Below are positions 23,036-61,200 of a stretch of 64,000 nucleotides of DNA, piece after piece. Source of the stretch: Alphaproteobacteria bacterium GWC2_42_16 (GTDB lineage: Bacteria > Pseudomonadota > Alphaproteobacteria > UBA9655). Positions within the stretch are counted from its first letter, which is position 1, and every line of letters starts with the position of its first letter. The notes under the pieces were generated by a model. It saw only the letters and a list, made by a program, of their open reading frames with translations, had not been told where the DNA came from and ran no database searches. The position numbers and the translations under genes were made by a program. The DNA is taken from the NCBI GenBank assembly GCA_001767835.1, contig MEMA01000052.1:5753-69752 (forward strand). Reading direction: 5' to 3'.

Positions 23036-23171
23036 ATCATCGTGAAAAATTTTAGATAAAATTGCAAAAATAGAATATATTTTTGGCACAATTTTATCTT
23101 GACTCGCACTTCAAGTATATACATTGTTTTGTGTAATAACTTTTTAAAAACCTAAAAGATAAAGGTATCTT

Positions 23172-24086
23172 ATGCGTGAGCGGTTGAGTTTAAATATTAG
23201 TGTCGCTCGATCTTGTTTTGTTAAATGTTTGGGCTGTTACAATCATTTTGGAAATAGCCCTAATTTAATAAGTACAGAGAATATCCTTTCTTTTTTAAGT
23301 GCTGCAAAAAAGAGAGGATTTACTAAAGTTACCCTTTGTGGCGGAGACCCCCTCTCTAGACCAAACATTACAGATCTATTAAAAAAAATAAACACACTAG
23401 GTTTTTTTATATCTCTCGACACTGTTGGGACTCCGATTCTGAGGGAAGCCAAAACTATATTTTATGGAAGTTCTTTAATAAGCAAGGTTGATGAAGCTGA
23501 TTTAGCAAAATATGTTGATTTAATTGGCATTCCATTAGATGGTCCTTCTAATGAGATCATTAGTCTTTTTAGGACAGAGCGCGTTAACCAGTTTGATGAA
23601 CAAATGCTTATTCTAGAAAAGCTCTCTGCAGCACAAGCCAAAATTTGCATTAATACTCTTGTTTACAAAGGAAACATTAATTATGTAGAAGAAATATTGC
23701 CAATTATAAAGAATTTCGACGGAATTAAGAAATGGCAAATATTTCAATTTATGCCAATTGGTCCCCTGGGATATAAAAATAGAAATATTTATGAAGTAAG
23801 CGATGAAGATTTTTTCTTGTTAAGAAATAGAATGAAAAAATATAAAGAGGAGCTATCCAAGCATATAAAATTAGAATTTAAAGCAAAGGCAGAGAGAAAA
23901 GGAAATTACATGTTTATTGATTCTGAAGGTTTGGCATGGGTACCTAACATTGCAATGAACGAAGAATGGAATGAACAAACAGATTCTACTCACAAGAGAC
24001 TTATTGTTGGTGATATAAATATTCCTGAAGATCACAAAAAAATTCTAGAGAGAGCTTTACACCCAAAGTCAATTAATATTGAATAA
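23172..24086 (+). CDS. Radical SAM enzyme, viperin (RSAD2)-like; candidate prokaryotic viperin
   Basis: A CX3CX2C cluster motif sits at aa 15-22 (RSCFVKCLGC) and a GGDP SAM-binding motif at KVTLCGGDPL. Segment-by-segment resemblance to viperin: DLIGIPLDGPSNEI, ICINTLVYKGN, KKWQIFQFMPI (compare RWKVFQCLLI), EVSDEDFFLL, and NYMFIDSEG. The gene is AT-rich. Confidence 0.6.
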   Translation: MRERLSLNISVARSCFVKCLGCYNHFGNSPNLISTENILSFLSAAKKRGFTKVTLCGGDPLSRPNITDLLKKINTLGFFISLDTVGTPILREAKTIFYGSSLISKVDEADLAKYVDLIGIPLDGPSNEIISLFRTERVNQFDEQMLILEKLSAAQAKICINTLVYKGNINYVEEILPIIKNFDGIKKWQIFQFMPIGPLGYKNRNIYEVSDEDFFLLRNRMKKYKEELSKHIKLEFKAKAERKGNYMFIDSEGLAWVPNIAMNEEWNEQTDSTHKRLIVGDINIPEDHKKILERALHPKSINIE

Positions 24087-24139
24087 GTTTCTGGCGATAT
24101 ACAAAATTATTCTGAAAATGTTATGTAAAACTTCTTTTA

Positions 24140-27100
24140 TTACAGAGTGAGCTTGTTAAGTTTAGCTTTAATCCTTATAAAATGAGGGGAGTCTTCTGGA
24201 AAATGAGCTTGAATAACTTCTAGCGCTTGCTTTAGATAATCAACGGATTGCTTTTTAAAGATTTCAGATTGTTGCATATCTTCCTTATTTATATGCTCAA
24301 AGGTTTCTTTTAGATACAGATCAGATAAGATTTCTAAGCATACGTAACTTTCCGCATATTTCTTAATTTGAAATATTCTTAAAGCCTTCTTAATGAGATT
24401 TTCAGCGGTTTTTATATCATTTTCTAACATATAGACTTGCCCAAGATTCATTATAACAGGAGCAACATCAATATGATCTTTGCCATAGGTCTTCTCATAA
24501 GTTTGAAAACTACGTTCAAGTAAATCTTTTGCTTTCTCATAGTTGCCTTGCTCTCTATAAACACTTCCTAGTCCTGCTAAAACCAGCGCAAACCAGGGAT
24601 GGTTTTCAAAATGGTTCCACCTATAAATCATAAGACTTTCTTCAAGGGATTGCTTTGCTTTCTCATAATTACCCATTTCTTTATAAATACTTCCTAAATG
24701 CTCCAAAGTCCGGGCAAACCATGGATGGTTTTCATACGAATTCTTCTTATAAACCATAAGGCTTTCTTCAAAGAGTTGTTTTGCCTTCTCATAATTACCT
24801 TGTTCTTTATATACACTTCCTAACCCTACTAGAGCCCGAGCAAACCACGGATGGTTTTCATAGGAATTTTTCTTATAAATCACGAGACTCTCTTCAAGGA
24901 GTTGTTTTGCTTTCTCATAGTTACCTTGCTCTCTATAAAGATTTCCCAACCATACCAAAGTCCAGGCAAACCAGGGCTGAGCTTCATGGGAGTTCTTTCT
25001 ATAAATCAAAAGACTTTCTTCAAGGAGTTGTTTTGCTTTCTCATAGTTACCCTGGTCTCTATAAACACTTCCTAGCCAAGCCAAAGCCCTAGCAAACCAA
25101 GGATTGTTTTCATAGGAATTTTTTCTATATATTACAAGACTTTCTTCAAGGAGTTGTCTTGCTTTCTCATAATTGCATTGCTCTCTATAAATGCTACCTA
25201 AACGTCCCAAAGCCTGAGCAAACCAAGGGTGGTTTTCATAGGAATTCTTTTTGTAAATCACAAGGCTTTCTTCAAAGAGTTGTTTGGCCTTCTCATAATT
25301 GCCTTGCTCTCTATAAACATTTCCGAGCCATCCCAAAGTCCGAGCAAACCAGGGGTGGTTTTCATAGGAACTCTTCCTATAAATTAAAATACATTGCTCT
25401 AGGAGTTGTTTTGCTTTCTCATAGTTGCCTTGGTCACTATAAACACACCCTAAACACCCCAAAGCTTTAGCAACCCAAAAATGGTTTTTATGAAAATTCT
25501 TTTTATAAATTGCAATACTTTGTTCAAAGAGTTGTTTTGCCTTCCCATAATTGCCGAGATCCCTATAAACATTTCCTAATTCACTACCTATAGAAGCTAT
25601 AACAAAATCTGTTAATAAATTAGGATGACTTAAAAACATTTCACAATGTCTTATGACAAAGCTCATTTTAGCAAAATCTTCCTTATCTATCACTTCACCA
25701 ACATAATTCTTAAACGCAGTTCCAATGGGTTCTATAAAACGTTTATTCTTTTCTGAGTTCTGTAATTTTGTAAGATAAGCTAGGGCTATAGCTTGGGTGC
25801 TCCGATGTATAGAAAAGGCTGGGATTGAACCAGAAGGAAGAACTACTTCATTTGTGACAAAAGAATGTTTTTTCAAGTTATAAATAAAATTATCAACCAC
25901 AGTACTTGTCTTGTACTTGTCTAATAAATCTCTTGGAATGTTCTGAGAATCGAGAAGACTGATAAACAATAAAAGATCCCAAAAATCCTTGTGGGAATTG
26001 ATAATATGTTGCAAAGATAAAGTGATGATCCCATAGCGAGTTTTAGTATAGTAACTTGCTTCCTCTAAAAGACTTTGTTGTACACTTTCAAAGTCTCTAT
26101 CATATTGGATGAGCTTCTCAAGATATGTCCCGTATGGTACATTTGTGGCCTTCAAGTAATAAGCAGCAATGGATACATCCAAAGGAAAAGGGGGAATATC
26201 ATTTAAAAACTTTTTTGCTTGCTCGGTTTGGGTAGCCGTGAATTTACTCGAATTTCCATTGGTCATAATCTTAACAAAGAGAGCTAGTTTGTCTTCAGGA
26301 GATAGCTCCCCTATTTGAATTGCTTCGTTAATATTGTTGTTATTTTTAATATTATTATCTCTTGTAATAAGGATTACTTTTCCTCTTCCCCAAACACTCG
26401 GATCATGGGGGAAAGACTTTTGGATATCCTTAAATTTTTCTACATTATCATAAATCAATATCCAATTTGGAATACGCTTTAATTTATCTCTCACAAAGAA
26501 AATAATCTTTTTTTCTCTTTCATCAGCGTTTTTAATATCCTTAATGCCCCTCACTTTTTCTTTCTCTGCTTCTGTTATGGCCAGAGCTTCAGCAAGATTT
26601 TCAAATGAATTAATCAGCTTGTCCTCTGACTCAGCATTAATTTCCCAAACTACCTTGGCATTTTGTTGACGCGTGTAATGTCGAGCGAGGGTTGTTTTAC
26701 CAGCACCTCCCATTCCTGTAAGAGCTATGGCTTGGATTTCATGATGTCCTTTTAAGCTTTTATCAATTCTTTCCATTAAATAAGGCCGATCTAAGAATAC
26801 GGATTGAGTAGGAATACTCAGATCATCTCTAACAGCTATACCATAATCCAAGGCTTTGTTTTGCGCGGACCCGCCTTCTTTTTTTTCAACAAAGGTTAAA
26901 AACCAAACGCAAAGAACCGCTATGCTTAATACGCTTCCTATAAAAAAGGATTTCTTTCTCAAATTCTTAGTATTGAAAAAATTGCTGATATACACCCTCA
27001 ATTGAGACACTAGGCCTATGCCTGACAAAGTTTTATCTTCTTGATGCAATTGCTTGTGCACTATATCTGAAGCACCACAAATTGATTCATAATGACTTTT

Positions 27101-27895
27101 AAAGTCTAAGATAATTTGGTCTAAAGCTATGTTTGGCAATAGTCTTTTTAAGACTGCGAAAGTAAAGTCATAATAATTTTCTCGCCGTAAATTATGTACA
27201 CATGCCATATTACCACGGTCTTGAAAAATATCATTTTTGATATTTTTGCTTGGGAATAGCGCAATAATACTATTTTGTGTTTTCCTGATTTTCTGTATGA
27301 AGGAAGTGACGTCTCGCTTATTTTTATTATCTACTCCTTCAACCTGCTCAATCATTGCTTCTGGAATAGCATAAATAATCAATTCGGATTTCAGCGTTTC
27401 GGTATTATTAACAGGATCTTTAATAAATATTTTACCTTCTCTGGCTTCAATGAATATCGTAACACCAGCTAGGTTTAGATGACTTTCTAGATAACGAATG
27501 AAAGAGGAGTGATATTCTTGATCCCGCCAATATACAATCACACAGGTAGGTTGCTCAGGATCAAGTTGGTCAGCAATTTTTAATAACTGTTCTTCAAAAG
27601 ATGCCCGAATTAATAAACTCAGGTAATGTTCTTTTAGCAGGGAAAGTTTCTTAGACTTTTCGATAAAATATATGATTCCATCCCGAGAATTACACTCCAG
27701 CTTCATCATGATGTTACGCATGTGAGCTTCGATTGTTTTCGGAGAAATAAATAGGCATGCGGCTATGGTTTTTGCCGATTTTCCGCTGAGAAGATAAGCC
27801 ATGATATCTATTTCTCTACATGTGAATTTAATTTCATTCACAATTTGCAAGTGTGATTCATAAATATCTTGAGGTAAGATAATATTGGCTTTCAT
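24140..27895 (-). CDS. STAND NTPase: N-terminal LuxR/GerE HTH, alpha/beta domain of unknown type, predicted TM helix, NB-ARC ATPase, and about 10 TPR units
   Basis: HTH: REIDIMAYLLSGKSAKTIAACLFISPKTIEAHMRNIMMKL (aa about 26-66). Hydrophobic helix: FFIGSVLSIAVLCVWFLTFV (aa about 316-336). NB-ARC: P-loop GMGGAGKTT (aa 394-402), Walker B WILIYDNV, and ILITRD. TPR: 42-aa units NHPWFARxLxxLGxVYREQGNYEKAKQLLEESLVIYKKNSYE. Confidence 0.8.
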   Translation of the reverse strand: MKANIILPQDIYESHLQIVNEIKFTCREIDIMAYLLSGKSAKTIAACLFISPKTIEAHMRNIMMKLECNSRDGIIYFIEKSKKLSLLKEHYLSLLIRASFEEQLLKIADQLDPEQPTCVIVYWRDQEYHSSFIRYLESHLNLAGVTIFIEAREGKIFIKDPVNNTETLKSELIIYAIPEAMIEQVEGVDNKNKRDVTSFIQKIRKTQNSIIALFPSKNIKNDIFQDRGNMACVHNLRRENYYDFTFAVLKRLLPNIALDQIILDFKSHYESICGASDIVHKQLHQEDKTLSGIGLVSQLRVYISNFFNTKNLRKKSFFIGSVLSIAVLCVWFLTFVEKKEGGSAQNKALDYGIAVRDDLSIPTQSVFLDRPYLMERIDKSLKGHHEIQAIALTGMGGAGKTTLARHYTRQQNAKVVWEINAESEDKLINSFENLAEALAITEAEKEKVRGIKDIKNADEREKKIIFFVRDKLKRIPNWILIYDNVEKFKDIQKSFPHDPSVWGRGKVILITRDNNIKNNNNINEAIQIGELSPEDKLALFVKIMTNGNSSKFTATQTEQAKKFLNDIPPFPLDVSIAAYYLKATNVPYGTYLEKLIQYDRDFESVQQSLLEEASYYTKTRYGIITLSLQHIINSHKDFWDLLLFISLLDSQNIPRDLLDKYKTSTVVDNFIYNLKKHSFVTNEVVLPSGSIPAFSIHRSTQAIALAYLTKLQNSEKNKRFIEPIGTAFKNYVGEVIDKEDFAKMSFVIRHCEMFLSHPNLLTDFVIASIGSELGNVYRDLGNYGKAKQLFEQSIAIYKKNFHKNHFWVAKALGCLGCVYSDQGNYEKAKQLLEQCILIYRKSSYENHPWFARTLGWLGNVYREQGNYEKAKQLFEESLVIYKKNSYENHPWFAQALGRLGSIYREQCNYEKARQLLEESLVIYRKNSYENNPWFARALAWLGSVYRDQGNYEKAKQLLEESLLIYRKNSHEAQPWFAWTLVWLGNLYREQGNYEKAKQLLEESLVIYKKNSYENHPWFARALVGLGSVYKEQGNYEKAKQLFEESLMVYKKNSYENHPWFARTLEHLGSIYKEMGNYEKAKQSLEESLMIYRWNHFENHPWFALVLAGLGSVYREQGNYEKAKDLLERSFQTYEKTYGKDHIDVAPVIMNLGQVYMLENDIKTAENLIKKALRIFQIKKYAESYVCLEILSDLYLKETFEHINKEDMQQSEIFKKQSVDYLKQALEVIQAHFPEDSPHFIRIKAKLNKLTL
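24400..25410. repeat. Tandem 126-bp (42-codon) near-identical repeats encoding the TPR array
   Basis: The motif ggttttcatagg recurs at exact multiples of 126 bp (positions about 24853, 25105, 25231, 25357). The translated units are nearly identical. Confidence 0.85.
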
Positions 27896-27985
27896 AAGAA
27901 TAAAATTTCTACATTTTTTCTCAGTATTATGCAGTTATACCTAAAAGGTTCAAGTTATTTTTACGTCAAGCTACTAAGTGATTTT

Positions 27986-28006
27986 CCCTTAGTCCTGTCC
28001 TAAGGG
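27986..28006. promoter_or_regulatory. Perfect 7-7 inverted repeat CCCTTAG-N7-CTAAGGG in a divergent promoter region (candidate HTH operator)
   Basis: cccttag at 27986-27992 and ctaaggg at 28000-28006. Extra CTAAG/CTTAG copies lie at 27974-27978 and 28051-28055, the latter within a second tttcccttag. The site sits between the divergent genes 24140-27895 (-) and 28083-28679 (+). Confidence 0.45.
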
Positions 28007-28082
28007 TATTCCCAGAATGACTAAACATACACTATTTTGCTAAAATTTCCCTTAGCATTTGAACGATTAAAGCTGAACTTTA

Positions 28083-28679
28083 ATGACAGGTAAATTATAT
28101 ATGTTTATCTCTATTGAACCAACAGAATATTATTATCACAAGGACATTTTGGAGCCATTTCTTGGCTATATCAAAGAAAATCCTAGCCTTAGATGGTCTT
28201 TTGAGAACCATAAAAATGCTATCTTTATTGTCTCTCTAGATGAGGCAAGAAGCATTTATGGAGGAGCTATGCTTCTTAAAGAAAAATTTAGTTCGTTACC
28301 TAGAGAAGTCCAAAAGAATATGAAAAATCTTGGGTTAATCAATAAAAATGTATGGACCTGCACCACCCTTCTTTATAAAAAGAATAATTATTCCGATCAG
28401 TGTGAATTCTTTTTCGAGACATTTTATCGAGATCTTTATAGGAAACTTGTTGAATTTGGAGTAAAAGAGAAAACGGGTTTTTTATACATGATGTTAGAAC
28501 CTGGCGAATATTTTTGTACTGAGGTCCTAGGCTGTTGGCCTTATATCAATAAAATTAAACTGCATGATTCTTTGAAAGACCTCTCTCATGGAGTTTTATC
28601 TCTAAGGGAAAATCAATCGCAATCCCATATAAAAACTGGGAGAAAGAAATTTCCTAAGGAGATAAAATTGGCGGCTTAG
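28083..28679 (+). CDS. Hypothetical protein (198 aa), no confident family assignment
   Basis: Clean AT-rich ORF followed by a strong terminator. Only a vague GNAT/LuxI-like secondary-structure pattern is visible (FFFETFYRDLYRKLVEFGVKEKTGFLYMML). Confidence 0.5.
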   Translation: MTGKLYMFISIEPTEYYYHKDILEPFLGYIKENPSLRWSFENHKNAIFIVSLDEARSIYGGAMLLKEKFSSLPREVQKNMKNLGLINKNVWTCTTLLYKKNNYSDQCEFFFETFYRDLYRKLVEFGVKEKTGFLYMMLEPGEYFCTEVLGCWPYINKIKLHDSLKDLSHGVLSLRENQSQSHIKTGRKKFPKEIKLAA

Positions 28680-28709
28680 CCTCCCTGTTCATAGCTGCCG
28701 TAAACTAAC

Positions 28710-29224: not shown

Positions 29225-29638
29225 TTGATGATCCGCGTACGAAAATTTAGAATGGAAAAGCTGGTTCGAGACAAAATGGCCGAAAAATTTCAAAAAAGAG
29301 GAGGCCGCTTAAAGCTTCGGACTTTAACTCCCCAAGATTTCCAAATTCAGCTATTAGAGAAACTCAAAGAAGAAGTTGCAGAAGTCATACATTCTGTCAC
29401 ACAAGAAGAGCTTTGTGAGGAAATGGCTGATCTCTTAGAGGTTATGCGTGCCCTTGCTAACATGAAACAAATTCCTTGGAGAGATATTGAACACATGCGT
29501 CTTGAAAAGAAAAAAACAAAGGGAGGTTTTGAAAAAGCAATTTTCGCTGAGTTTGTCGAGCTTGACTCAAAGGATCATCCCGGCATCGATTATTGTCTCA
29601 AACATCCCCAAAAATACCCAGAAGTTTTTGATTTTTAA
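29225..29638 (+). CDS. MazG-like / phosphoribosyl-ATP pyrophosphohydrolase-like NTP pyrophosphatase
   Basis: KLVRDKMAEKF N-terminus, then a helical EEVAEV...EEMADLLEVMRAL pair of acidic metal-binding helices. Confidence 0.6.
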   Translation: MMIRVRKFRMEKLVRDKMAEKFQKRGGRLKLRTLTPQDFQIQLLEKLKEEVAEVIHSVTQEELCEEMADLLEVMRALANMKQIPWRDIEHMRLEKKKTKGGFEKAIFAEFVELDSKDHPGIDYCLKHPQKYPEVFDF

Positions 29639-29997
29639 ACCACATCTATCAGGACAGAAATTTTGTCGATAACTTCAGTTATAACGTCTAAAGGGACTTT
29701 TCCTTCAAATTTGGCCTTCCTTACCCTCCAATCTAAGCTTTTAATTTGATCCGCAAGCACAACGCCTTTAATGGCTCCGTGAGAAGGGAGCTGAACTTCA
29801 AAGGGATATCCTTTTTTATGACTTGTGATAGGACACAATAAAGCCAGACCTACTTTTTTGTTATAGGTAAGGGGAGAAATCACTAAAGCAGGACGGGTCT
29901 TTCTGATTTCTGAGCCCTGGCTCGGATCAAGATCAATCCAAACAATATCCCCTCGTTCAGGAAAATAGTCTTTTTGTTTACCAAGACTCTTTGCCAC
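29635..29997 (-). CDS. mazF: Type II toxin, MazF/PemK family endoribonuclease
   Basis: RGDIVWIDLDPSQGSEIRKTRPALVISP...LLCPITS...VVLADQIKSLDW. Confidence 0.88.
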   Translation of the reverse strand: MAKSLGKQKDYFPERGDIVWIDLDPSQGSEIRKTRPALVISPLTYNKKVGLALLCPITSHKKGYPFEVQLPSHGAIKGVVLADQIKSLDWRVRKAKFEGKVPLDVITEVIDKISVLIDVV

Positions 29998-30208
29998 GAG
30001 AAGGCCCTATCTGAACTTCTTTATGAATATTATCTGGGGATACTTGATCAAGTAATGACTCGAGAGAGTAACTTTTACTAATAACGATGCGATGATCCTG
30101 AAGAGAAACATCGACAGAGGTTCCTGCGTGGATGCCAATCTTATCAGCCAAAACACGTGGTATCCTCAGGCCTAAGCTATTGCCCCATTTTGTAACATGG
30201 CTTTGCAT
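29978..30208 (-). CDS. mazE: Type II antitoxin, MazE (AbrB/SpoVT fold)
   Basis: VTKWGNSLGLRIPRVLADKIGIHAGTSVDVS. The gene overlaps mazF by 20 nt. Confidence 0.85.
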   Translation of the reverse strand: MQSHVTKWGNSLGLRIPRVLADKIGIHAGTSVDVSLQDHRIVISKSYSLESLLDQVSPDNIHKEVQIGPSRGKESW

Positions 30209-39799: not shown

Positions 39800-41572
39800 C
39801 TAGTTCCAGACATCGTAGTAGTCTAGTGGCGGAGGGCTAGGAGAACGTGATGGTAAGGGGCTCGACCGATTAGTCTCCGTCTCATCATCTTTACTATTCT
39901 CTGACTGATTTGAAGTACTAACTAAAGCTATTTCGAATGGTTCATAAGGGTGGACAAGAGAGAAAGTCTCATTGTCAGAAAGCCTCAATGAATTAGTTTT
40001 ATCCTCTTCGTCAGTATCTTTAATGGTCTCTTTCTTATCATCTGCAGCGTCAGAACTCCTCTCGTTTCTGCTGTCTGATGACGAGCCTGAATCATCAGAC
40101 CTTTCATCGTCGCGCTTTTCATCATTCCCTCCAACAACAGCAGAATGTGAATCACCTCCAAAAAAGCGCGCCCATAAGCTCGGCTTTTTTTCCTTTTTAT
40201 CCTTCTTGACTGGGGTCTCTTTTTCATTCCCCAAAGGAGAACTATGTGAAGACAAGGGTGGTGAGGATGATGCGGACGGAGATGGAAAATCATCAATATC
40301 TGAAAAATTTTCAACTGGAATAGAGCTGTTTTTGCTGGAAAGCTGGCGTGGAAGAAATGAAGGAAAACTAAGACGTGATGCCGGAGAAAAATGTCTCCTC
40401 ACTCCAAATGGCGAGAATACCCCTGAAGCCGGTCCACCAAGAGCAGCTGGAAAAACAAGTAATGGGCTACGACCTCCTGAGCTGCTGCCTGAGGAACTAC
40501 TAGAAGCGGAGATAACAACAGGTGGAGCCACAGGTACGCCTCCTCCAGGAACTGGTACAGGCGCAGGAACTGGTGCTGGTGCGGGAACAGGAGCTGGCGC
40601 AGGAACGACTGCAGGACCAGGCGCAGGTACAGGTCCACCAAGCACTGGAACGGGGGCAGGAGGAGGTGCAGGTATTGCGGGACCTGGCGCCGGGACAGGA
40701 GCGACTGCAGGAGGCGCAACTACTACTGCGGGCCTAGGAGCGGGAGCAGCGGCAGGTATAGGCACGGCTACAGGTGCAGGTGGGAGCACGGGTATGGCTG
40801 CAGGCGCAGGTATAGCAGGAGCTGGCGCCGGGACAAGAACGACTGCAGGAGGTGCAATTACCACTGCAGGCATAGGAGCGGGAGCAGCGGCAGGTATAGG
40901 CACGGCTACAGGTGCAGGTGGGAGCACGGGTATGGCTGCAGGCCCAGGAGCAAGTCCACCAGGCACTAGAACAGGGGCAGGAGGAGGTGCAGGTATGGCA
41001 GGAGCTGGCGCCGGGACAGGAGCGACTGCAGGAGGCGCAACTACTACTGCGGGCCTAGGAGCGGGTGCCGCAGATGCTGGAACGACTTCAGGAGCAGGTG
41101 CAAATGCAGGAGAAGCTCCCCTAAAGGCTTCAGGCATTGGATTCGATTCTGCATTTCGAGAAGAAGATTGGCTATTTTGAGGGGCAGGGAGCTTTCTTTT
41201 TCCTGAGAGCTCCACTGCTTGAGGGAACTCTTGCATAGGCTCCTCCGGAGTAAACTCTACACGCTTACCCTTTGGAAAATGAATGGGGTTATTCCTTGCA
41301 GAAACAGATTCCGCCTCATGCCGAGGCAATTTCACAGGTGAAGGCCCTCCTCCCTTTGAAGAAGTTGAGGTTCCTTTTCCAAAACTTTCACTATGTCCAC
41401 CTCCTAATCCCCACCTAGAATCGAGGGTAATTTTCTCCTTCCCTTCAGAGGGATGAGAAAACTCTAAAAAAGGCATTATTTTTTCAGGGCGTAATAATAG
41501 GTAAATCAAAATAAGAATTGAGGCATATGCCAATTTTCGACTACCATCACGCCAATATATACTTTTCACCAT
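39800..41572 (-). CDS. Membrane-anchored or secreted Pro/Ala/Val-repeat low-complexity protein with a Ser/Asp/Glu-rich C-terminal half
   Basis: 590 aa. N-terminal hydrophobic helix LAYASILILIYLLL, about 200 aa of (A/V/I)PAP-type repeats, a poly-Ser stretch, and an acidic tail. The ORF fills the whole gap between neighbouring genes. Confidence 0.6.
   Translation of the reverse strand: MVKSIYWRDGSRKLAYASILILIYLLLRPEKIMPFLEFSHPSEGKEKITLDSRWGLGGGHSESFGKGTSTSSKGGGPSPVKLPRHEAESVSARNNPIHFPKGKRVEFTPEEPMQEFPQAVELSGKRKLPAPQNSQSSSRNAESNPMPEAFRGASPAFAPAPEVVPASAAPAPRPAVVVAPPAVAPVPAPAPAIPAPPPAPVLVPGGLAPGPAAIPVLPPAPVAVPIPAAAPAPMPAVVIAPPAVVLVPAPAPAIPAPAAIPVLPPAPVAVPIPAAAPAPRPAVVVAPPAVAPVPAPGPAIPAPPPAPVPVLGGPVPAPGPAVVPAPAPVPAPAPVPAPVPVPGGGVPVAPPVVISASSSSSGSSSGGRSPLLVFPAALGGPASGVFSPFGVRRHFSPASRLSFPSFLPRQLSSKNSSIPVENFSDIDDFPSPSASSSPPLSSHSSPLGNEKETPVKKDKKEKKPSLWARFFGGDSHSAVVGGNDEKRDDERSDDSGSSSDSRNERSSDAADDKKETIKDTDEEDKTNSLRLSDNETFSLVHPYEPFEIALVSTSNQSENSKDDETETNRSSPLPSRSPSPPPLDYYDVWN
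40540..41100. repeat. GC-rich long direct repeats (units about 46 codons) inside the Pro/Ala-rich gene
   Basis: The string gcaggtataggcacggctacaggtgcaggtgggagcacgggtatggctgcagg occurs twice (about 40753 and 40890). The string ggagcgactgcaggaggcgcaactactactgcgggcctaggagcggg also occurs twice (about 40699 and 41020). Confidence 0.8.
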
Positions 41573-52605: not shown

Positions 52606-54123
52606 CTATGTAGCTTGTGGGGGCTCGGTTTTTTCTTGGTATAATTTAGAAAGCCCTTTCACAGCCCCCATCCATATCAGCATAATAAAAATAAGGACCC
52701 CACTTAAGTAAGGCATAATCGTCATTTGCGTGCCTGCAGTTAGTATCAAAAGGAAGATTTGAATAATCCCCCCACTTGATTTTCCAAAACGGCTGAAAAT
52801 CACATCTACAGCAGCCTTGCCCTTCACTTTGAGCTCTTGGTCAAGGGGGATGTAGGTCATTTCCTTTGTTGGATCGAAAAGAGAGTATTTCATACTCTTA
52901 CCTAGAATATTCTGAATAGCTCCGACATAAACGGCCATTAAAAGAGAAGTGACCCCAAAAAGAAGAAGGAGCCCTTCGAGGTAATCTTTAAAAAGAATGA
53001 AGGAGAAGAAGAGGATCGTTGTGATGAGAAAAACAGAAGGGGTCACCATAGCGCCAACAAACCAACCAAAACGCCGAACAATTCCCTTTGTTAAAAGAAT
53101 AAAAATGACAGTCGAAATGCCGGTCCAAAATGAGAAATTTGCCATAAATGAAAAATAATCATTAGGTTCTGGGAAGTTCTCTTTCACTTGGCTTTTCCAG
53201 GTGACATCGATGATGTTGGCCGTGATGCCATAACTGATCACAAGAAGGGCGATAAAGCCTAAGTATTTTGATGTCAAAAGGTACCGGAGACTCTCTGAGA
53301 GGGAGAGTTTCGGGGTCAGATTTTCTTTTTTATTGCCAACACGAGCAGCAGCATCGTAATAGCGAGGATCTGTTAACACATAACGATCCATCCATTTGTA
53401 AAGTAAAAGGACTCCTATTCCAGAAACAATAACAGCCGTGATTAAATAAAGGATGTTTAAAGCCCAAGCTTCCGATTGAGATGAAAGTTGTTTGTTTAAA
53501 TTTACTAGATACTGCCCAAAGGTCCCGGCTGAAATAAGAGCAAAGTTCCCCAGGAACCCAAAAAAAGAATAAAAGCGCTTGGCCTCATTGGTGCGTGTAA
53601 TTTCATTTGCAAACTGCCAAAAAAGTAAATTAACAACGATGCTCCCATAAAGGTCGGAGAAAAGATAAAAAAGAGCAAAGGACCAAATACCATAAAGGGA
53701 AATAAACCATTTTAAATGAGGGCATGTCTCTCTTAAAATAAAGATGGTTTCTTCGGATGGGTGCAAGAACTCTCGATTGGGATAAATATAAAGAGCAAAA
53801 GCAGCAAAGAAAAGAAGGTAGGGGATCAAGCAAGCATAAAAAAGGTGCGCCCGACCTAACACGTTGCTTAACTTTGCATAAAGAAAGAAAAAAAGAAAAG
53901 CGATGGGTACGTCCCAAAGCTTGATAAAAGAAATGACCTCAGCACCGCAAGACGGTGCTGTGATCACAAGTGCATCCTTTGTATTCCGCAGAAGTGTATA
54001 ACTAAAGAGAACTAAAAACATCATCCCTCCCATGGGTAGAAATTTTTTTAGTTCACTGTTTTGAATTGGCCAAAGGGCTGCGCGAAACTTAGAAAACTCC
54101 GGACCTGCAGAGGAGTCAGACAT
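52606..54123 (-). CDS. tlc: ATP/ADP translocase (Tlc/NTT nucleotide transporter family)
   Basis: Characteristic N-terminus (FSKFRAALWPIQNSELKKFLPMGGMMFLVLFSYTLLRNTKDALV). About 12 TM helices; 505 aa. Confidence 0.88.
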   Translation of the reverse strand: MSDSSAGPEFSKFRAALWPIQNSELKKFLPMGGMMFLVLFSYTLLRNTKDALVITAPSCGAEVISFIKLWDVPIAFLFFFLYAKLSNVLGRAHLFYACLIPYLLFFAAFALYIYPNREFLHPSEETIFILRETCPHLKWFISLYGIWSFALFYLFSDLYGSIVVNLLFWQFANEITRTNEAKRFYSFFGFLGNFALISAGTFGQYLVNLNKQLSSQSEAWALNILYLITAVIVSGIGVLLLYKWMDRYVLTDPRYYDAAARVGNKKENLTPKLSLSESLRYLLTSKYLGFIALLVISYGITANIIDVTWKSQVKENFPEPNDYFSFMANFSFWTGISTVIFILLTKGIVRRFGWFVGAMVTPSVFLITTILFFSFILFKDYLEGLLLLFGVTSLLMAVYVGAIQNILGKSMKYSLFDPTKEMTYIPLDQELKVKGKAAVDVIFSRFGKSSGGIIQIFLLILTAGTQMTIMPYLSGVLIFIMLIWMGAVKGLSKLYQEKTEPPQAT

Positions 54124-57357: not shown

Positions 57358-59439
57358 TTATCTTGCTAGGACAGCAAGAAGCAAGAGTGCTACGATGTTA
57401 ATGATTTTGATCATAGGGTTTACCGCAGGCCCTGCTGTGTCTTTGTAAGGATCACCAACCGTATCCCCTGTTACGGCAGCCTTATGAGTTTCAGAGCCCT
57501 TTCCACCAAGATTGCCCTCTTCAATGTATTTCTTGGCATTATCCCAAGCTCCTCCTCCGGAGGTCATAGAAATTGCAACGAAAAGCCCTGTGATAATGGT
57601 TCCTAATAACATGGCTCCTAAAGTAGTAAAGGCTTCGGCTTGGCCTGCAAGCGATGAGATCCCGAAATAAACAAGGGGTGGCGCTAAGACAGGAAGCAAG
57701 GAAGGAACAACCATCTCGCGGATTGCTGCCTTCGTTAAAATATCAACCGCACGGCCATATTCAGGCTTGTTTTTCCCGGTCATAATTCCCTTAATTTCCC
57801 GGAACTGACGACGCACTTCGACAACCACTTCGGCTCCCGCACGCCCTACAGCCATCATTCCCAAAGCGCCAAAAAGGTAAGGCAAAAGCCCCCCAATAAA
57901 AAGTCCCACAACAACGTAAGGATTTTGGAGTTGAAAGTGTATGTTTAAATAGGGAAAGAAGTTATCAAGATCTTCCGTATAAGCTGCAAACAAAACAAGA
58001 GCCGCCAAACCTGCAGAGCCTATCGCATAGCCCTTTGTTACAGCTTTGGTAGTATTCCCAACTGCATCTAAAGCGTCCGTAATCTTACGCACAGAAGCAG
58101 GCAATTCTGCCATTTCGGCAATGCCGCCGGCATTATCCGTCACCGGACCATAGGCATCAAGGGCCACAATTAATCCTGCAAGAGCAAGCATTGTGGTAGC
58201 CGCAATCCCAATCCCAAAAAGTCCAGCGTTCGTATAGGCTACTAAAATACCGCCACAAATAACGAGCACAGGCAAAGCCGTGGCTTCCATAGAAACGGCA
58301 AGCCCTTGGATGATATTGGTAGCATGCCCAGTTACCGAGGCTTGAGCTATGCTCCTAACAGGGCGGTGTCTTGTTGAAGTATAATATTCTGTGATCACTA
58401 CAAGAAGACCTGTGACCACAAGGCCTGTAAGAGCACTATAGAGGATGTTCATACCCGTAAAAATATGCCCATCGGCCATAAGAGGAAGATCTAGTCCTAT
58501 CAGACTCATGGTAACCCAAACGATGAGACCGAAAGATATGAGACTTGCCATAATCAATCCTTTGTAAAGGGCCCCCATGATGTTTTGTTTGGACCCCAAA
58601 CGGACAAAAAAGGTTCCCATGACAGATCCCACAATGCAAACAGCTCCTATCGCCAAGGGATAAACCATAAGAATTTCTTGAGCCATTCCAGAAAAGAAGA
58701 GAGCAGCCAGCTGCATGGTCGCCACAATGGTAACAACATAGGTTTCAAAAAGATCGGCCGCCATTCCTGCGCAGTCTCCAACGTTATCTCCAACGTTATC
58801 TGCAATGACGGCTGCATTTCGGGGGTCATCTTCAGGAATTCCAGCTTCAATTTTTCCAACAAGGTCTGCCCCAACATCTGCTCCCTTTGTAAAAATACCA
58901 CCACCTAGACGAGCAAAAATTGAAATAAGGGAGGCACCAAAGCTAAGAGAAAGAAGGGCTTCCATAATATAACGGGTAGATTCACCACTTTGACGAAGGA
59001 ACATATAATACAAAGTCACACCTAAGAGCCCAAGGCCAACGACAAGCATTCCAGTAATGGCGCCTGATTTGAAAGCAATATCTAAAGCAGGGACAAGGCC
59101 TGTGCGCGCCGCTTCTGTCGTACGCACATTGGCACGTATAGAAACGTTCATCCCTAGGTATCCTGCAAGTCCCGACAAACACGCCCCAGTCACGAAACCA
59201 ATTGCCGCATGTATGCCCAGAATCCATCCTAAGAAAAGGGCCACGAGGATGCCAACACTTCCGATGGTTTTATATTGCCGATTAAGGTAGGCGCTTGCCC
59301 CCTCTTGAATGGCTAAAGCAATTTCTTGCATACGAGGAGTTCCTGTGGAACAGGCAAAAACCTTACGGGCAGCGTAGGCACTATAAAGAAGAGCAAGAAC
59401 GGCTGCGGCTGCAATCATAAAAAGTATCGACATGTACAT
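57358..59439 (-). CDS. hppA: Membrane-bound H+-translocating pyrophosphatase
   Basis: [19 protein letters not shown] and [14 protein letters not shown] motifs. About 16 TM helices. Confidence 0.93.
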
Positions 59440-59622: not shown

Positions 59623-61200
59623 ATGTTCCATTTAAAAAGGTTTAGACCAACACTTTTCATAGCCGTTGCCACTTTTTGTTCAGGAATACTGATACCAATA
59701 AACTCCTATGCGGTTTGGTCTGATGAAGAGTCCTCTGATGAATCTGATAGTGAAGAGAGCCGAAGCCCTGTGATAGCAGCCCCTTCTGGCAGTTCTTCTT
59801 CTCCTTCGTCCTATAGACCCTATCTTTCTGAAAAGTCAACTATAGACGACGCTATAGAAAAATCGAAAACGATAAGATCTTGTTACGACAGGGGTTTAGC
59901 AACAACTCCTGAAGATATAGCTGATTTTTGGAAGGAAGTAATCACTAGATTTCCCTTCGATTCCCAATTTATTGATGAAAAAAAAGAAGTTCATAAGATT
60001 CTTAAAGAGGGAGTCAAGACATATCGCGGAAAAAAATTTGATGCCTTTCTAAAGTGTTATGAACTCCTTCCCCCTAAGAGCCTTGACGCTGAAGACCACA
60101 GATATGTGGCTACTCTTTATACTAATTTTGCCAAAACGAGCATTGGAATAGATACAGAGACAAAACGCAAGGAATATTATAAGAAGGCTATACAAATTTG
60201 GGAAGTACTTATAAGAGGAGGCTATGGAACGCTTGCCGAAGATTATAGAACGGCCGCCAATTGTTGTTATTACTTCAATAAGGATAAAAGAGCGGCTGAA
60301 TTAATTACCATAGCTCTGTCGATGTTCGAGAATCAAAGTCCTCCCCATAAAACAACATGGGATCCAAGTTCTTACGAATACGATCACCAACTCAAAAAAG
60401 ATCGTGAATTAGCCTTTAGAATTTATTTTTTTGCAAAAGAATGGGCCAAAACGACACAAACCTGGGAACGAATGGGTAAGAAAGCTAACTATGACTCAAA
60501 TGATTATAGAAAAGCGGCTAAAGCCTATTTTGCACTTAAGAAATATCAGGAGGCTGCTGAATGGAGTGAAAAAGCTTTAGGGCTTGAGTTTCAACATATA
60601 TCCTATCACCCAAAAACAACTAAATCTTTTTATGCTGCAGATCTTGCGAGGACTGCACATACCCAAAGACGCGCAGGAAATTATGAGAGAGCTGAAGAGC
60701 TATGGGACAAATTTTATGCCCTTGATAGAGATGACGATAGGGGGGAAACGAATGAACAACGTTTAGAAAACCTTAGAGAAGCTGCTGAAGTCTATTATCA
60801 TAACGGCAAATATAAAGAGGCTGCAAGGAAATGGCAAGATGCATACGAAAAAGCATACGAAAAAAAAGATACCGCCATGTGGGATGATCGGCTGAAAGCT
60901 GCACAAGCCTGGTTCAAGTGTTCCAACCTTTTTGATTGTGATAATGGTAGGGTTATATGCGAAGGCTTCATCAATGGCACCATAGAAAATAAAGAGATCT
61001 ATATTCCCAACGAAGCCGGAAAATATGTTACAGAGACCATCAAACTGCCGGGACTCACACCGGAGTTACAGGAGCGTGCGAAAAAATTATTAGAGGCAAA
61101 CCCTTCCAAACTATGGAAGGACGATAAGTCCGGTTCTTCGAATATGAGCTCTTCAACAAAGAAGAATGGCCTTTTTAGCAAATGCTGGAGGAAAAAATAA
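59623..61200 (+). CDS. Secreted hypothetical protein: acidic Ser-rich N-terminal region plus TPR/Sel1-like helical repeats
   Basis: Signal peptide (LFIAVATFCSGILIPINSYA), then SDEESSDESDSEESRS. Recurrent Y/W-rich helix pairs follow (GNYERAEELWDKFYAL, GKYKEAARKWQDAYEKAYE). AT-rich. Confidence 0.5.
   Translation: MFHLKRFRPTLFIAVATFCSGILIPINSYAVWSDEESSDESDSEESRSPVIAAPSGSSSSPSSYRPYLSEKSTIDDAIEKSKTIRSCYDRGLATTPEDIADFWKEVITRFPFDSQFIDEKKEVHKILKEGVKTYRGKKFDAFLKCYELLPPKSLDAEDHRYVATLYTNFAKTSIGIDTETKRKEYYKKAIQIWEVLIRGGYGTLAEDYRTAANCCYYFNKDKRAAELITIALSMFENQSPPHKTTWDPSSYEYDHQLKKDRELAFRIYFFAKEWAKTTQTWERMGKKANYDSNDYRKAAKAYFALKKYQEAAEWSEKALGLEFQHISYHPKTTKSFYAADLARTAHTQRRAGNYERAEELWDKFYALDRDDDRGETNEQRLENLREAAEVYYHNGKYKEAARKWQDAYEKAYEKKDTAMWDDRLKAAQAWFKCSNLFDCDNGRVICEGFINGTIENKEIYIPNEAGKYVTETIKLPGLTPELQERAKKLLEANPSKLWKDDKSGSSNMSSSTKKNGLFSKCWRKK

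Follow-up and report, generated by a model that had tools for sequence, protein, structure and literature searches.

A family of LuxR-type STAND regulators with a predicted membrane anchor between the DNA-binding domain and the NB-ARC NTPase

The stretch of DNA analysed here, 64,000 nucleotides of Alphaproteobacteria bacterium GWC2_42_16 (contig MEMA01000052.1) and referred to below as the window, carries on its minus strand the gene of a large regulatory protein of the STAND type, in which a LuxR-type helix-turn-helix (HTH) at the N-terminus is separated from an NB-ARC NTPase and a tetratricopeptide repeat (TPR) array by a predicted transmembrane (TM) helix. The gene, located at 24140-27895, consists of one intact open reading frame (ORF) of 1251 amino acids (aa) with an ATG start. 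The identical 1251-aa protein has been called in independent NCBI, ENA and JGI assemblies (a groundwater Holosporales metagenome-assembled genome, MAG), where its public annotation reads 'Tetratricopeptide repeat protein' or hypothetical, and its homologues are likewise single ORFs of ~1000-1370 aa in more than 40 genomes. Because the ORF is identical in independent assemblies and the homologues are single ORFs, a frameshift or two-gene artefact is excluded, and the division into two genes that the original prediction had allowed for was not found. A sequencing error fusing two genes, or a pseudogene, is an explanation of negligible probability: a few truncated copies of the family do occur in other genomes (L007, L031, L042 and L045, L numbers denoting related loci), but the same layout is present in single ORFs at more than 40 loci and in 145 family representatives. 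The following features were assigned to the gene.

24140..27895, minus strand: whole gene (HTH, helix, alpha/beta domain, TM helix, NB-ARC, TPR), from the ORF, Pfam and the identical protein in independent assemblies
27671..27826, minus strand: GerE/LuxR-type HTH, aa 24-75 (PF00196, 60.2 bits, cut-off 23.5, E 1.5e-16)
27566..27646, minus strand: long conserved helix, aa 84-110 (YxxLLxxxxFExxL), from the AlphaFold2 (AF2) model with a predicted local distance difference test score (pLDDT) of ~90
27077..27547, minus strand: degenerate five-stranded alpha/beta (flavodoxin/TIR-like) domain, aa 117-273, from AF2, weak Foldseek matches and the alignment
26888..26947, minus strand: single predicted TM helix, aa 317-336, from Kyte-Doolittle (KD) hydropathy, insertion free energy (dG), family conservation and charge bias
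26153..26782, minus strand: NB-ARC NTPase core, aa 372-581 (PF00931, 48.8 bits, cut-off 23.5)
25793..25813, minus strand: MHD-like motif SIHRSTQ, aa 695-701 (His697), with the His conserved in at least 90% of the family alignment
24356..25603, minus strand: TPR array, ~aa 765-1180 (TPR_12 5.7e-86, TPR_10 2.3e-67; Pfam domains from ~aa 800)

The order of GerE HTH, alpha/beta domain, hydrophobic helix, NB-ARC and TPR, which had been proposed from the letters alone, was borne out by Pfam, AF2 and hydropathy, and a survey of this order across genomes revealed that it is widely shared. An exhaustive profile search over 1.84 billion representatives returned 1320 representatives at E <= 1e-30; the top 150 all lay below 1e-147, most of them matching from about residue 1 and most measuring 1000-1280 aa, and at least 145 representatives (50%-identity clusters) share the layout. 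A word-indexed homologue search gave only 9-20 mostly fragmentary matches, and it was the exhaustive search that disclosed the size of the family. Additionally, 55 related genomic loci were gathered by a pattern-based scan of one genome per species, which is biased toward close relatives. The hosts comprise Holosporales/Paracaedibacteraceae, Rickettsiaceae, Legionella, Francisellaceae and other small-genome proteobacterial MAGs. Among those with names are Candidatus Caedibacter acanthamoebae, Paracaedibacter symbiosus, Odyssella thessalonicensis (two copies) and Finniella; several Rickettsiaceae MAGs, one Legionella MAG and one Francisellaceae MAG follow, and the remaining hosts are unclassified MAGs of alpha- and gammaproteobacteria. 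Two or three paralogues occur in several of the genomes; the 64-kb window contains no further paralogue of the regulator. Two short contigs binned as Flavobacteriales and Nitrospinae that carry close relatives of the alphaproteobacterial genes are probably misbinned. A phage-type integrase (~394 aa) and a small gene resembling AlpA adjoin the gammaproteobacterial copies L036, L038 and L039, suggesting that integrative elements carry them. The literature search found no paper joining NB-ARC, LuxR and transmembrane, or NB-ARC and Paracaedibacter, and the architecture is mentioned neither in two large comparative papers on STAND proteins (PMC7159879, PMC8195603) nor in a review of the Holosporales (PMC11909080). 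We regard these proteins as a large, undescribed family of putative self-regulating switches.

The N-terminal part was examined with an AF2 model that covers aa 1-370, was built from 18 sequences and has a mean pLDDT of 72.5. It comprises a confident HTH, the confident helix 84-110, a domain of mixed confidence at 117-273, a low-confidence linker and a long helix at 288-339. The HTH, which passes the Pfam gathering threshold and is modelled as a confident helical domain (pLDDT ~90), is the best-conserved part of the family. In the helix that follows, Y91, L94, F100 and L104 are conserved in at least 93% of an alignment of 141 sequences, and we consider it a candidate dimerisation helix. The strand-helix-strand start foreseen for the middle region was reproduced by the model (strand 117-123, helix 127-142, strand 146-152; pLDDT 56-91 across the domain). 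Its description as TIR- or flavodoxin-like was weakly supported: the fold is five-stranded beta/alpha and TIR domains were among the best Foldseek matches (5for, RRS1 4c6s and SARM1 6o0v; TM-score by target 0.54-0.59, E 3e-3 to 3e-2), but no match against the PDB reached E <= 1e-3, and generic three-layer alpha/beta folds such as the GH3 C-terminal domain, B12-binding and flavodoxin-like domains ranked alongside.

Sequence conservation in this middle region was of a particular kind. Among the 141 aligned sequences, the positions conserved in at least 75% are hydrophobic (the four helix residues named above, together with L136, L140, Y241, Y242, L249 and F265) or are Cys, Gly or Pro only (C118, G144 and P254); the centre of the domain is rich in insertions and deletions, and no conserved acidic or polar residue (Glu, Asp, His, Arg) was found between aa 110 and 290. 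Since no such residue is conserved, neither an enzymatic TIR/SIR2 effector nor a phospho-receiver is supported. A TIR NADase or SIR2-type effector, lacking any conserved polar residue and any conserved catalytic Glu, was rejected, as was a REC phospho-receiver, for which there is neither a conserved Asp nor a Response_reg match. We read the domain as a putative degenerate scaffold or dimerisation module, neither enzyme nor phospho-receiver. In distant members of the family, the unit composed of HTH, helix, alpha/beta domain and TM helix is reused with other C-termini: at L043:9959-12580 it is followed by an ankyrin-repeat array (Ank_2, 9e-93) that replaces NB-ARC-TPR, in L053 by TPR only, and in L048 and L051 by unknown C-terminal domains. 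The N-terminal cassette is, judging by these arrangements, an evolutionary unit, and the swapping of C-termini is what one would expect if a cytoplasmic output cassette were combined with interchangeable sensor modules.

The NB-ARC region of the window protein contains the Walker A motif GMGGAGKTT at 394-402 (K400), the Walker B motif LIYDN at 480-484 (D483), TRD at 511-513 and the GxP-like PFPLD at 569-573. Walker A (GxGGxGKTT), Walker B (LLIYDN), TTRD, PFPLD and SIHRxxQ are all conserved in 41 full-length homologues. Because these NTPase motifs are conserved, the NB-ARC-TPR module is predicted to bind nucleotide wherever it is located, and its nucleotide switch is, to judge from the same motifs, under selection. 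A PDB sequence search with the NB-ARC region returned nothing significant. Within the TPR array, Tandem Repeats Finder delimited 8.4 tandem units of 126 bp (42 aa) with 77% matches at 24527-25579 on the minus strand; the repeats also give rise to long, spurious reading frames on the other strand (24781-25092 and 25159-25470).

Upstream of the regulator, a 205-bp spacer leads to a divergent ORF, named orf198 here, and the spacer holds a predicted operator and a promoter-like element.

27974..28006, unstranded: operator by phylogenetic footprint, consisting of the dyad CTAAGtG-ATTTT-CCCTTAG (27974-27992) and a third half-site CTAAGGG (28000-28006)
27926..27953, minus strand: promoter-like element TTGAAC, 16 nt, CATAAT, from a consensus scan, just downstream of the dyad
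28101..28679, plus strand: orf198, 192 aa from a conserved MF start, GNAT-fold and FeeM/AHL-synthase-like (AHL, acyl-homoserine lactone), from synteny, AF2 and Foldseek

Read on the strand of the regulator, the operator becomes CCCTTAG-N7-CTAAGGG-AAAAT-CaCTTAG, and one more CCCTTAG occurs at 28049-28055. Across 10 orthologous intergenic regions with diverged flanks, the block CTAAGGGAAAATCCCTTAG has remained essentially unchanged, CTAAGGG-N5-CCCTTAG being the consensus dyad. In the alignment of orthologous intergenic regions, promoter-like TTGAAY and TAATAAT blocks that point toward the regulator gene are also conserved beyond the dyad. When up to two mismatches are allowed, the dyad occurs once in the 64-kb window, at the intergenic region of the regulator, and three of the window's 11 CCCTTAG heptamers fall within ~70 bp at the operator. 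In 15 of 47 loci, dyads of the same stringency precede the start codon by 88-151 bp, against a chance expectation that we estimate ourselves at ~1e-3 per locus; among these loci are paralogues without an upstream GNAT ORF, namely L009, L013 and L016 (Caedibacter acanthamoebae). The HTH therefore appears to be functional on a conserved predicted operator, and the proteins very probably form a family of autoregulated LuxR-type STAND regulators.

The operator also bears on the idea that the protein is a secreted effector, for example of a type IV system, whose helix inserts into a host membrane and whose NB-ARC/TPR or ankyrin parts act on host targets. The concentration of the family in protist-associated intracellular bacteria, its paralogous expansion and its use of NB-ARC, TPR and ankyrin, eukaryote-like modules that are common in effectors, would all suit such a role. 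The best-conserved part is nevertheless a bacterial-type GerE HTH with a matching dyad upstream of the gene itself, which argues for action on the bacterium's own DNA, and we consider a secreted effector very improbable.

The divergent gene orf198 was the only strongly conserved neighbour of the family, being upstream and divergent in 12 related loci, and its true start is placed at 28101 because the MF start is conserved in the orthologues. No Pfam, NCBIfam or PADLOC family was assigned to it and neither an Autoind_synth nor an NAS profile matched; Pfam on 14 members gave nothing at E <= 1, and a PDB profile search gave noise matches only. The AF2 model (pLDDT 75, predicted TM-score 0.77) has a GNAT topology, and its top Foldseek matches were FeeM 2g0b (7e-5), MesI 6wns, BjaI 5w8e and EsaI 1kzf, with TM-scores of 0.42-0.51, although ordinary GNAT acetyltransferases scored nearly as well as the FeeM/AHL synthases. 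In our reading of the family alignment, the R/Q-x-x-G-x-G/A motif for the CoA pyrophosphate is not seen at the beta4-alpha3 junction, and AHL- and FeeM-type synthases likewise lack this motif. Nearly all orthologues end in ...(E)I/L-x-LAA (28668-28676 in the window), an ending that we take to resemble that of the ssrA tag, a ClpXP degron, and by this analogy the GNAT protein may be kept short-lived. Because a dyad lies between the regulator and a divergent FeeM/AHL-synthase-like gene, the layout resembles luxI/luxR with a lux-box-like dyad, in which orf198 is only a candidate member of the LuxI/FeeM group by its modelled fold. The likeness extends to size, a LuxR-type HTH gene being divergent from a GNAT-fold gene of ~190 aa, and the FeeM-type N-acyl amino acid synthases encoded beside LuxR-type EpsA regulators at PEP-CTERM loci offer a similar comparison. 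In contrast to LuxI/LuxR, the regulator described here has no autoinducer-binding domain, and orf198 is without an Autoind_synth match.

The hydrophobic segment between the alpha/beta domain and NB-ARC, placed at nt 26888-26950 in the original prediction, which corresponds to aa 316-336, is preceded by a cluster of basic residues (R312, K313, K314). Its best 19-residue stretch, aa 318-336, has a mean KD value of 2.44, and aa 317-335 have a summed approximate apparent insertion free energy of -1.8. The KD scan of the window protein detected no second hydrophobic segment, the next most hydrophobic one lying inside the HTH at 1.21. A single strong hydrophobic 19-mer was located 60-100 aa before Walker A in ~48 of 50 full-length genomic homologues. 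Among the 145 independent 50%-identity representatives, 137 had a 19-mer with KD >= 1.6 at a median of 76 aa before Walker A, and three more had a weaker but clear segment. The N-terminal flank carried the more positive net charge in 46 of 52 homologues (p 4e-9) and in 116 of 137 representatives (p 6e-20). A Tat (twin-arginine translocation) signature was absent, with RR in 14 of 138 n-regions and Arg usage at background; on these two counts, Tat export of a pre-folded, nucleotide-loaded domain was ruled out. By every measure computed, the helix is predicted to be a Sec/SRP-type signal anchor with N-in/C-out orientation, and the protein is probably membrane-anchored, a topology reading that draws only on hydropathy and charge statistics of our own computation.

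These properties also bear on the alternative that both halves are cytoplasmic, the protein being a soluble or peripheral factor in the style of AfsR or MalT. Its helix would then not span the membrane and would serve as a membrane-association, oligomerisation or buried element, perhaps in one conformational state only. That the helix might not be membrane-spanning had been foreseen, and the data mostly disagree. Its hydrophobic core of 19-25 aa across homologues, flanked by charges on both sides, its Eisenberg mean hydrophobicity (H 0.81) with a low moment (muH 0.11) and the rarity of a central Pro (6 of 138) fit a spanning helix, and this profile is unlike that of an in-plane anchor or hairpin. 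The sequence of the helix is not conserved, but its hydrophobicity is, as in lipid-facing helices. A very strong positive-inside bias and the retention of the helix in 95% of the family point the same way, and in the AF2 model the segment lies within the long helix 288-339, between low-confidence segments and with no predicted packing partner within the modelled aa 1-370. We therefore consider an entirely cytoplasmic protein rather unlikely, with the rare relatives that lack the helix as the part of this idea that was upheld.

The membrane-anchored reading leads directly to a paradox. Because the family would consist of autoregulated DNA-binding proteins with a conserved dyad, the predicted HTH must be cytoplasmic, and a cytoplasmic HTH combined with a single N-in/C-out helix would place an ATP-dependent switch outside the cytoplasm. 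This conflict had been pointed out for the single protein; it is real and family-wide. STAND and NLR switches are seen as strictly cytoplasmic ATP-dependent machines, and here a predicted spanning helix separates the output from the ATPase-sensor input, so that the family either breaks the cytoplasmic rule or shows an unrecognised use of a hydrophobic helix in a soluble regulator. A gene elsewhere in the window is relevant to this conflict.

52606..54123, minus strand: full-length TLC ATP/ADP translocase (PF03219, E 1e-181)

The TLC translocase is described as a hallmark of an obligate intracellular life in which bacteria take up ATP from the host (PMC4198247), and two of the genomes sequenced in that work carry the family (L016 and L031). 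The window's TLC gene marks the organism as an intracellular energy parasite. Since TLC takes ATP from the periplasm, nucleotide is expected there and, from the established function of the translocase, should be present whenever the bacterium is inside its host. Periplasmic ATP supplied in this way would make an extracytoplasmic STAND protein feasible in the lineages where the family is found. No TLC gene was present within the 10-kb flanks of the related loci, which is uninformative.

Our working interpretation, which we put forward with a little less than even confidence, is a membrane-anchored, autoregulated LuxR-type one-component factor with a predicted ToxR-like topology, in which the NB-ARC/TPR (STAND) part would be the signal-processing switch. 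The N-terminal 316 aa, with the HTH, the conserved helix and the alpha/beta scaffold, would remain in the cytoplasm, and the hydrophobic helix, acting as a Sec/SRP signal anchor, would position NB-ARC-TPR beyond the membrane on its periplasmic face, an arrangement like that of ToxR or CadC. Capture of a ligand by the TPR array and exchange of ATP for ADP on NB-ARC would then cause oligomerisation, whereby the cytoplasmic HTHs would meet on the CTAAGGG-N5-CCCTTAG dyad and turn on the regulator's own promoter. In the subgroup to which the window belongs, the divergent GNAT gene, a possible acyl-signal synthase, would probably be switched on as well, and the TPR ligand could be an acyl signal made by this enzyme. 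The availability of extracytoplasmic ATP would follow from the life of these bacteria as intracellular energy parasites: host ATP, on which TLC acts, would enter their periplasm. The extracytoplasmic position of NB-ARC-TPR is, taken by itself, a similarly tentative prediction, if anything slightly more so. A step more doubtful is the proposal that a periplasmic NB-ARC-TPR represents the first extracytoplasmic STAND nucleotide switch, a host detector enabled by host ATP/ADP supplied through TLC: outside the host there would be no nucleotide and the switch would be off, and inside it ATP together with the TPR-bound ligand would lead to oligomerisation across the membrane and transcription from the dyad. 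A ToxR-like tethered regulator with an extracytoplasmic STAND module had been among the options of the original prediction; it fits the data best and TLC lessens its paradox, although the topology is only predicted.

Several observations weigh against this interpretation. Five of the 145 representatives lack the hydrophobic helix and are otherwise intact, a hydrophilic linker joining the alpha/beta domain to an RSDLxIP motif ahead of NB-ARC, and they stem from at least three independent losses. One of them, P0052 (L060:1142-4486), keeps the family operator CTAAGGGGAAAATACTTAG upstream at L060:1032-1050. Because otherwise intact variants without the helix exist, one of them with the operator, the two halves can, on this pattern, share a compartment, and HTH and NB-ARC-TPR can presumably work together in it. 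The Cys counts of the C-terminal part show no even bias (54 odd, 60 even), so that this part is without an even-Cys signature; the Cys content amounts to 0.59% in the C-terminal part, 0.35% in NB-ARC and 1.49% in the N-terminal part, a comparison made without a control set. Given that a Tat signature is missing, folding and nucleotide loading of the domain would have to follow Sec export. We know of no STAND or AAA+ NTPase that works outside the cytoplasm, and the literature search yielded nothing in either direction; STAND NTPases are otherwise cytoplasmic and need ATP, and the strict conservation of the ATPase motifs is in keeping with a location there. Furthermore, the restriction to intracellular lineages comes from a biased scan and most hosts are unclassified MAGs, and the regulator and the GNAT gene are linked only by conserved synteny and a common operator in one subgroup of 12 loci. 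Next to P0052, the divergent ORF (207 aa, without a Pfam family) is unrelated and shows no homology to orf198; a Transposase_mut gene is close by.

When compared to known systems, the regulator combines elements of several classes. It shares with AfsR/SARP of Streptomyces an N-terminal DNA-binding domain, NB-ARC and a C-terminal TPR, and likely the same logic, in which nucleotide and ligand drive oligomerisation and thereby control transcription. AfsR has an OmpR-type winged helix and BTAD, and has no GerE domain, alpha/beta spacer or TM helix; the AfsR model NF053617 scored 85 bits against a cut-off of 1430, over the TPR region only, and neither Trans_reg_C nor BTAD matched. With MalT and the LAL proteins it has in common a STAND NTPase, a TPR-like sensor and a GerE/LuxR HTH. 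Oligomerisation of MalT/LAL regulators requires both ATP and inducer. The HTH is C-terminal in these proteins and N-terminal here, MalT is soluble, and the NTPase of the present family is of the NB-ARC type; the MalT model NF003420 reached 52 bits against a cut-off of 537, over the HTH only. The contrast with MalT/LAL and the resemblance to the AfsR layout despite another DNA-binding fold, both part of the original prediction, were thus corroborated by an HTH that is N-terminal and of the GerE type. ToxR, CadC and TcpP resemble the family in having an N-terminal cytoplasmic DNA-binding domain, one predicted spanning helix and a large C-terminal sensor, and in reusing the cassette with different C-terminal modules. 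They differ in their OmpR-type winged helix, their small periplasmic sensors and the lack of an NTPase beyond the membrane, whereas the domain here is GerE-type and its periplasmic location is predicted. The best curated model for the C-terminal half was that of the FxSxx-COOH system TPR protein (NF040586, 292.9 bits, cut-off 300), with the TPR array as its best stretch; this and other bacterial NB-ARC-TPR proteins have TPR_12/TPR_10 as here, but are without the HTH-alpha/beta-TM cassette. Without an OmpR-type winged helix or BTAD, with its HTH at the other end from that of MalT and with curated scores far below the cut-offs, the family falls outside the AfsR, MalT and ToxR classes. It is a previously undescribed variant of STAND transcription regulators, and would be categorically new if the topology were confirmed.

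The family has its main distribution, and has expanded, in ATP-importing bacteria associated with protists (Holosporales, Rickettsiaceae, Legionellales-like), for which, to our knowledge, almost nothing is known of transcriptional host sensing. The operator and the GNAT gene provide handles, namely a DNA site together with candidates for the signal synthase and the receptor, and the arrangement, if confirmed, would indicate that obligate intracellular bacteria possess a circuit for host sensing or of a quorum-sensing-like kind. The original prediction did not include the size of the family, the conserved operator, the divergent GNAT partner or the intracellular, ATP-importing life of the hosts.

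On the other side of the regulator, its 3' end is met by a convergent gene.

23172..24086, plus strand: radical SAM protein of 304 aa, distantly viperin-like, convergent on the 3' end of the regulator (PF04055)

This protein scored 65.3 bits with the NCBIfam viperin model NF038283 (cut-off 180) and 3e-22 with PADLOC pVip, and by these scores is at most a distant viperin relative. The gene is adjacent only in the four closest orthologous loci (L002, L003, L005 and L006), and its membership of the module is uncertain. An unrelated radical SAM gene of ~506 aa (CGVGCPFC) is located downstream of the family gene and on the same strand in L009, L010 and L054, so that radical SAM enzymes recur beside the family in two different forms.

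The viperin-like neighbour raises the possibility of an NLR/Avs-like anti-phage or conflict system, in which NB-ARC-TPR would sense an invader and the helix would disrupt the membrane in an abortive infection. STAND defence proteins with TM effectors have been described in bacteria (bioRxiv 10.1101/2022.07.19.500537), and the low-GC surroundings of the gene, detailed below, as well as the integrase and AlpA-like gene beside some gammaproteobacterial copies, would agree with such a function. PADLOC, however, gave only generic TPR and short sub-domain matches (VakA, 5e-5 over 46 aa), and the output at the N-terminus is a DNA-binding HTH that is well conserved and has a conserved operator of its own. 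Instead of an N-terminal multi-helix effector there is a single internal helix with an N-in charge bias, the radical SAM protein is below the viperin cut-off and linked only in the closest orthologues, and the hosts live as obligate intracellular bacteria whose genomes contain several paralogues each. The membrane-disrupting defence effector that had been suggested is consequently very unlikely.

The radical SAM gene, the regulator and orf198, together with their spacers, form a low-GC islet at ~23100-28700 (0.345-0.35 versus ~0.45) that is placed between clpB and the fdx/isc genes. The clpB/fdx context was not found at the orthologous loci of other genomes, and since it differs there, the module appears to have moved. 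Two further large ORFs of the window are not paralogues of the regulator: one of 590 aa without a Pfam family (39800-41572, minus strand) and one of 525 aa with a weak TPR_12 match only (59623-61200, plus strand). An F-type ATP synthase operon (~47.8-52.3 kb) is situated just upstream of the TLC gene, and an H+-pyrophosphatase is encoded at 57358-59439. Finally, in the gene table of the identical public contig, a MazE/PemK (MazF-type) toxin-antitoxin pair lies just beyond fdx at ~29635-30208 on the minus strand, beside a MazG-like PRA-PH gene.

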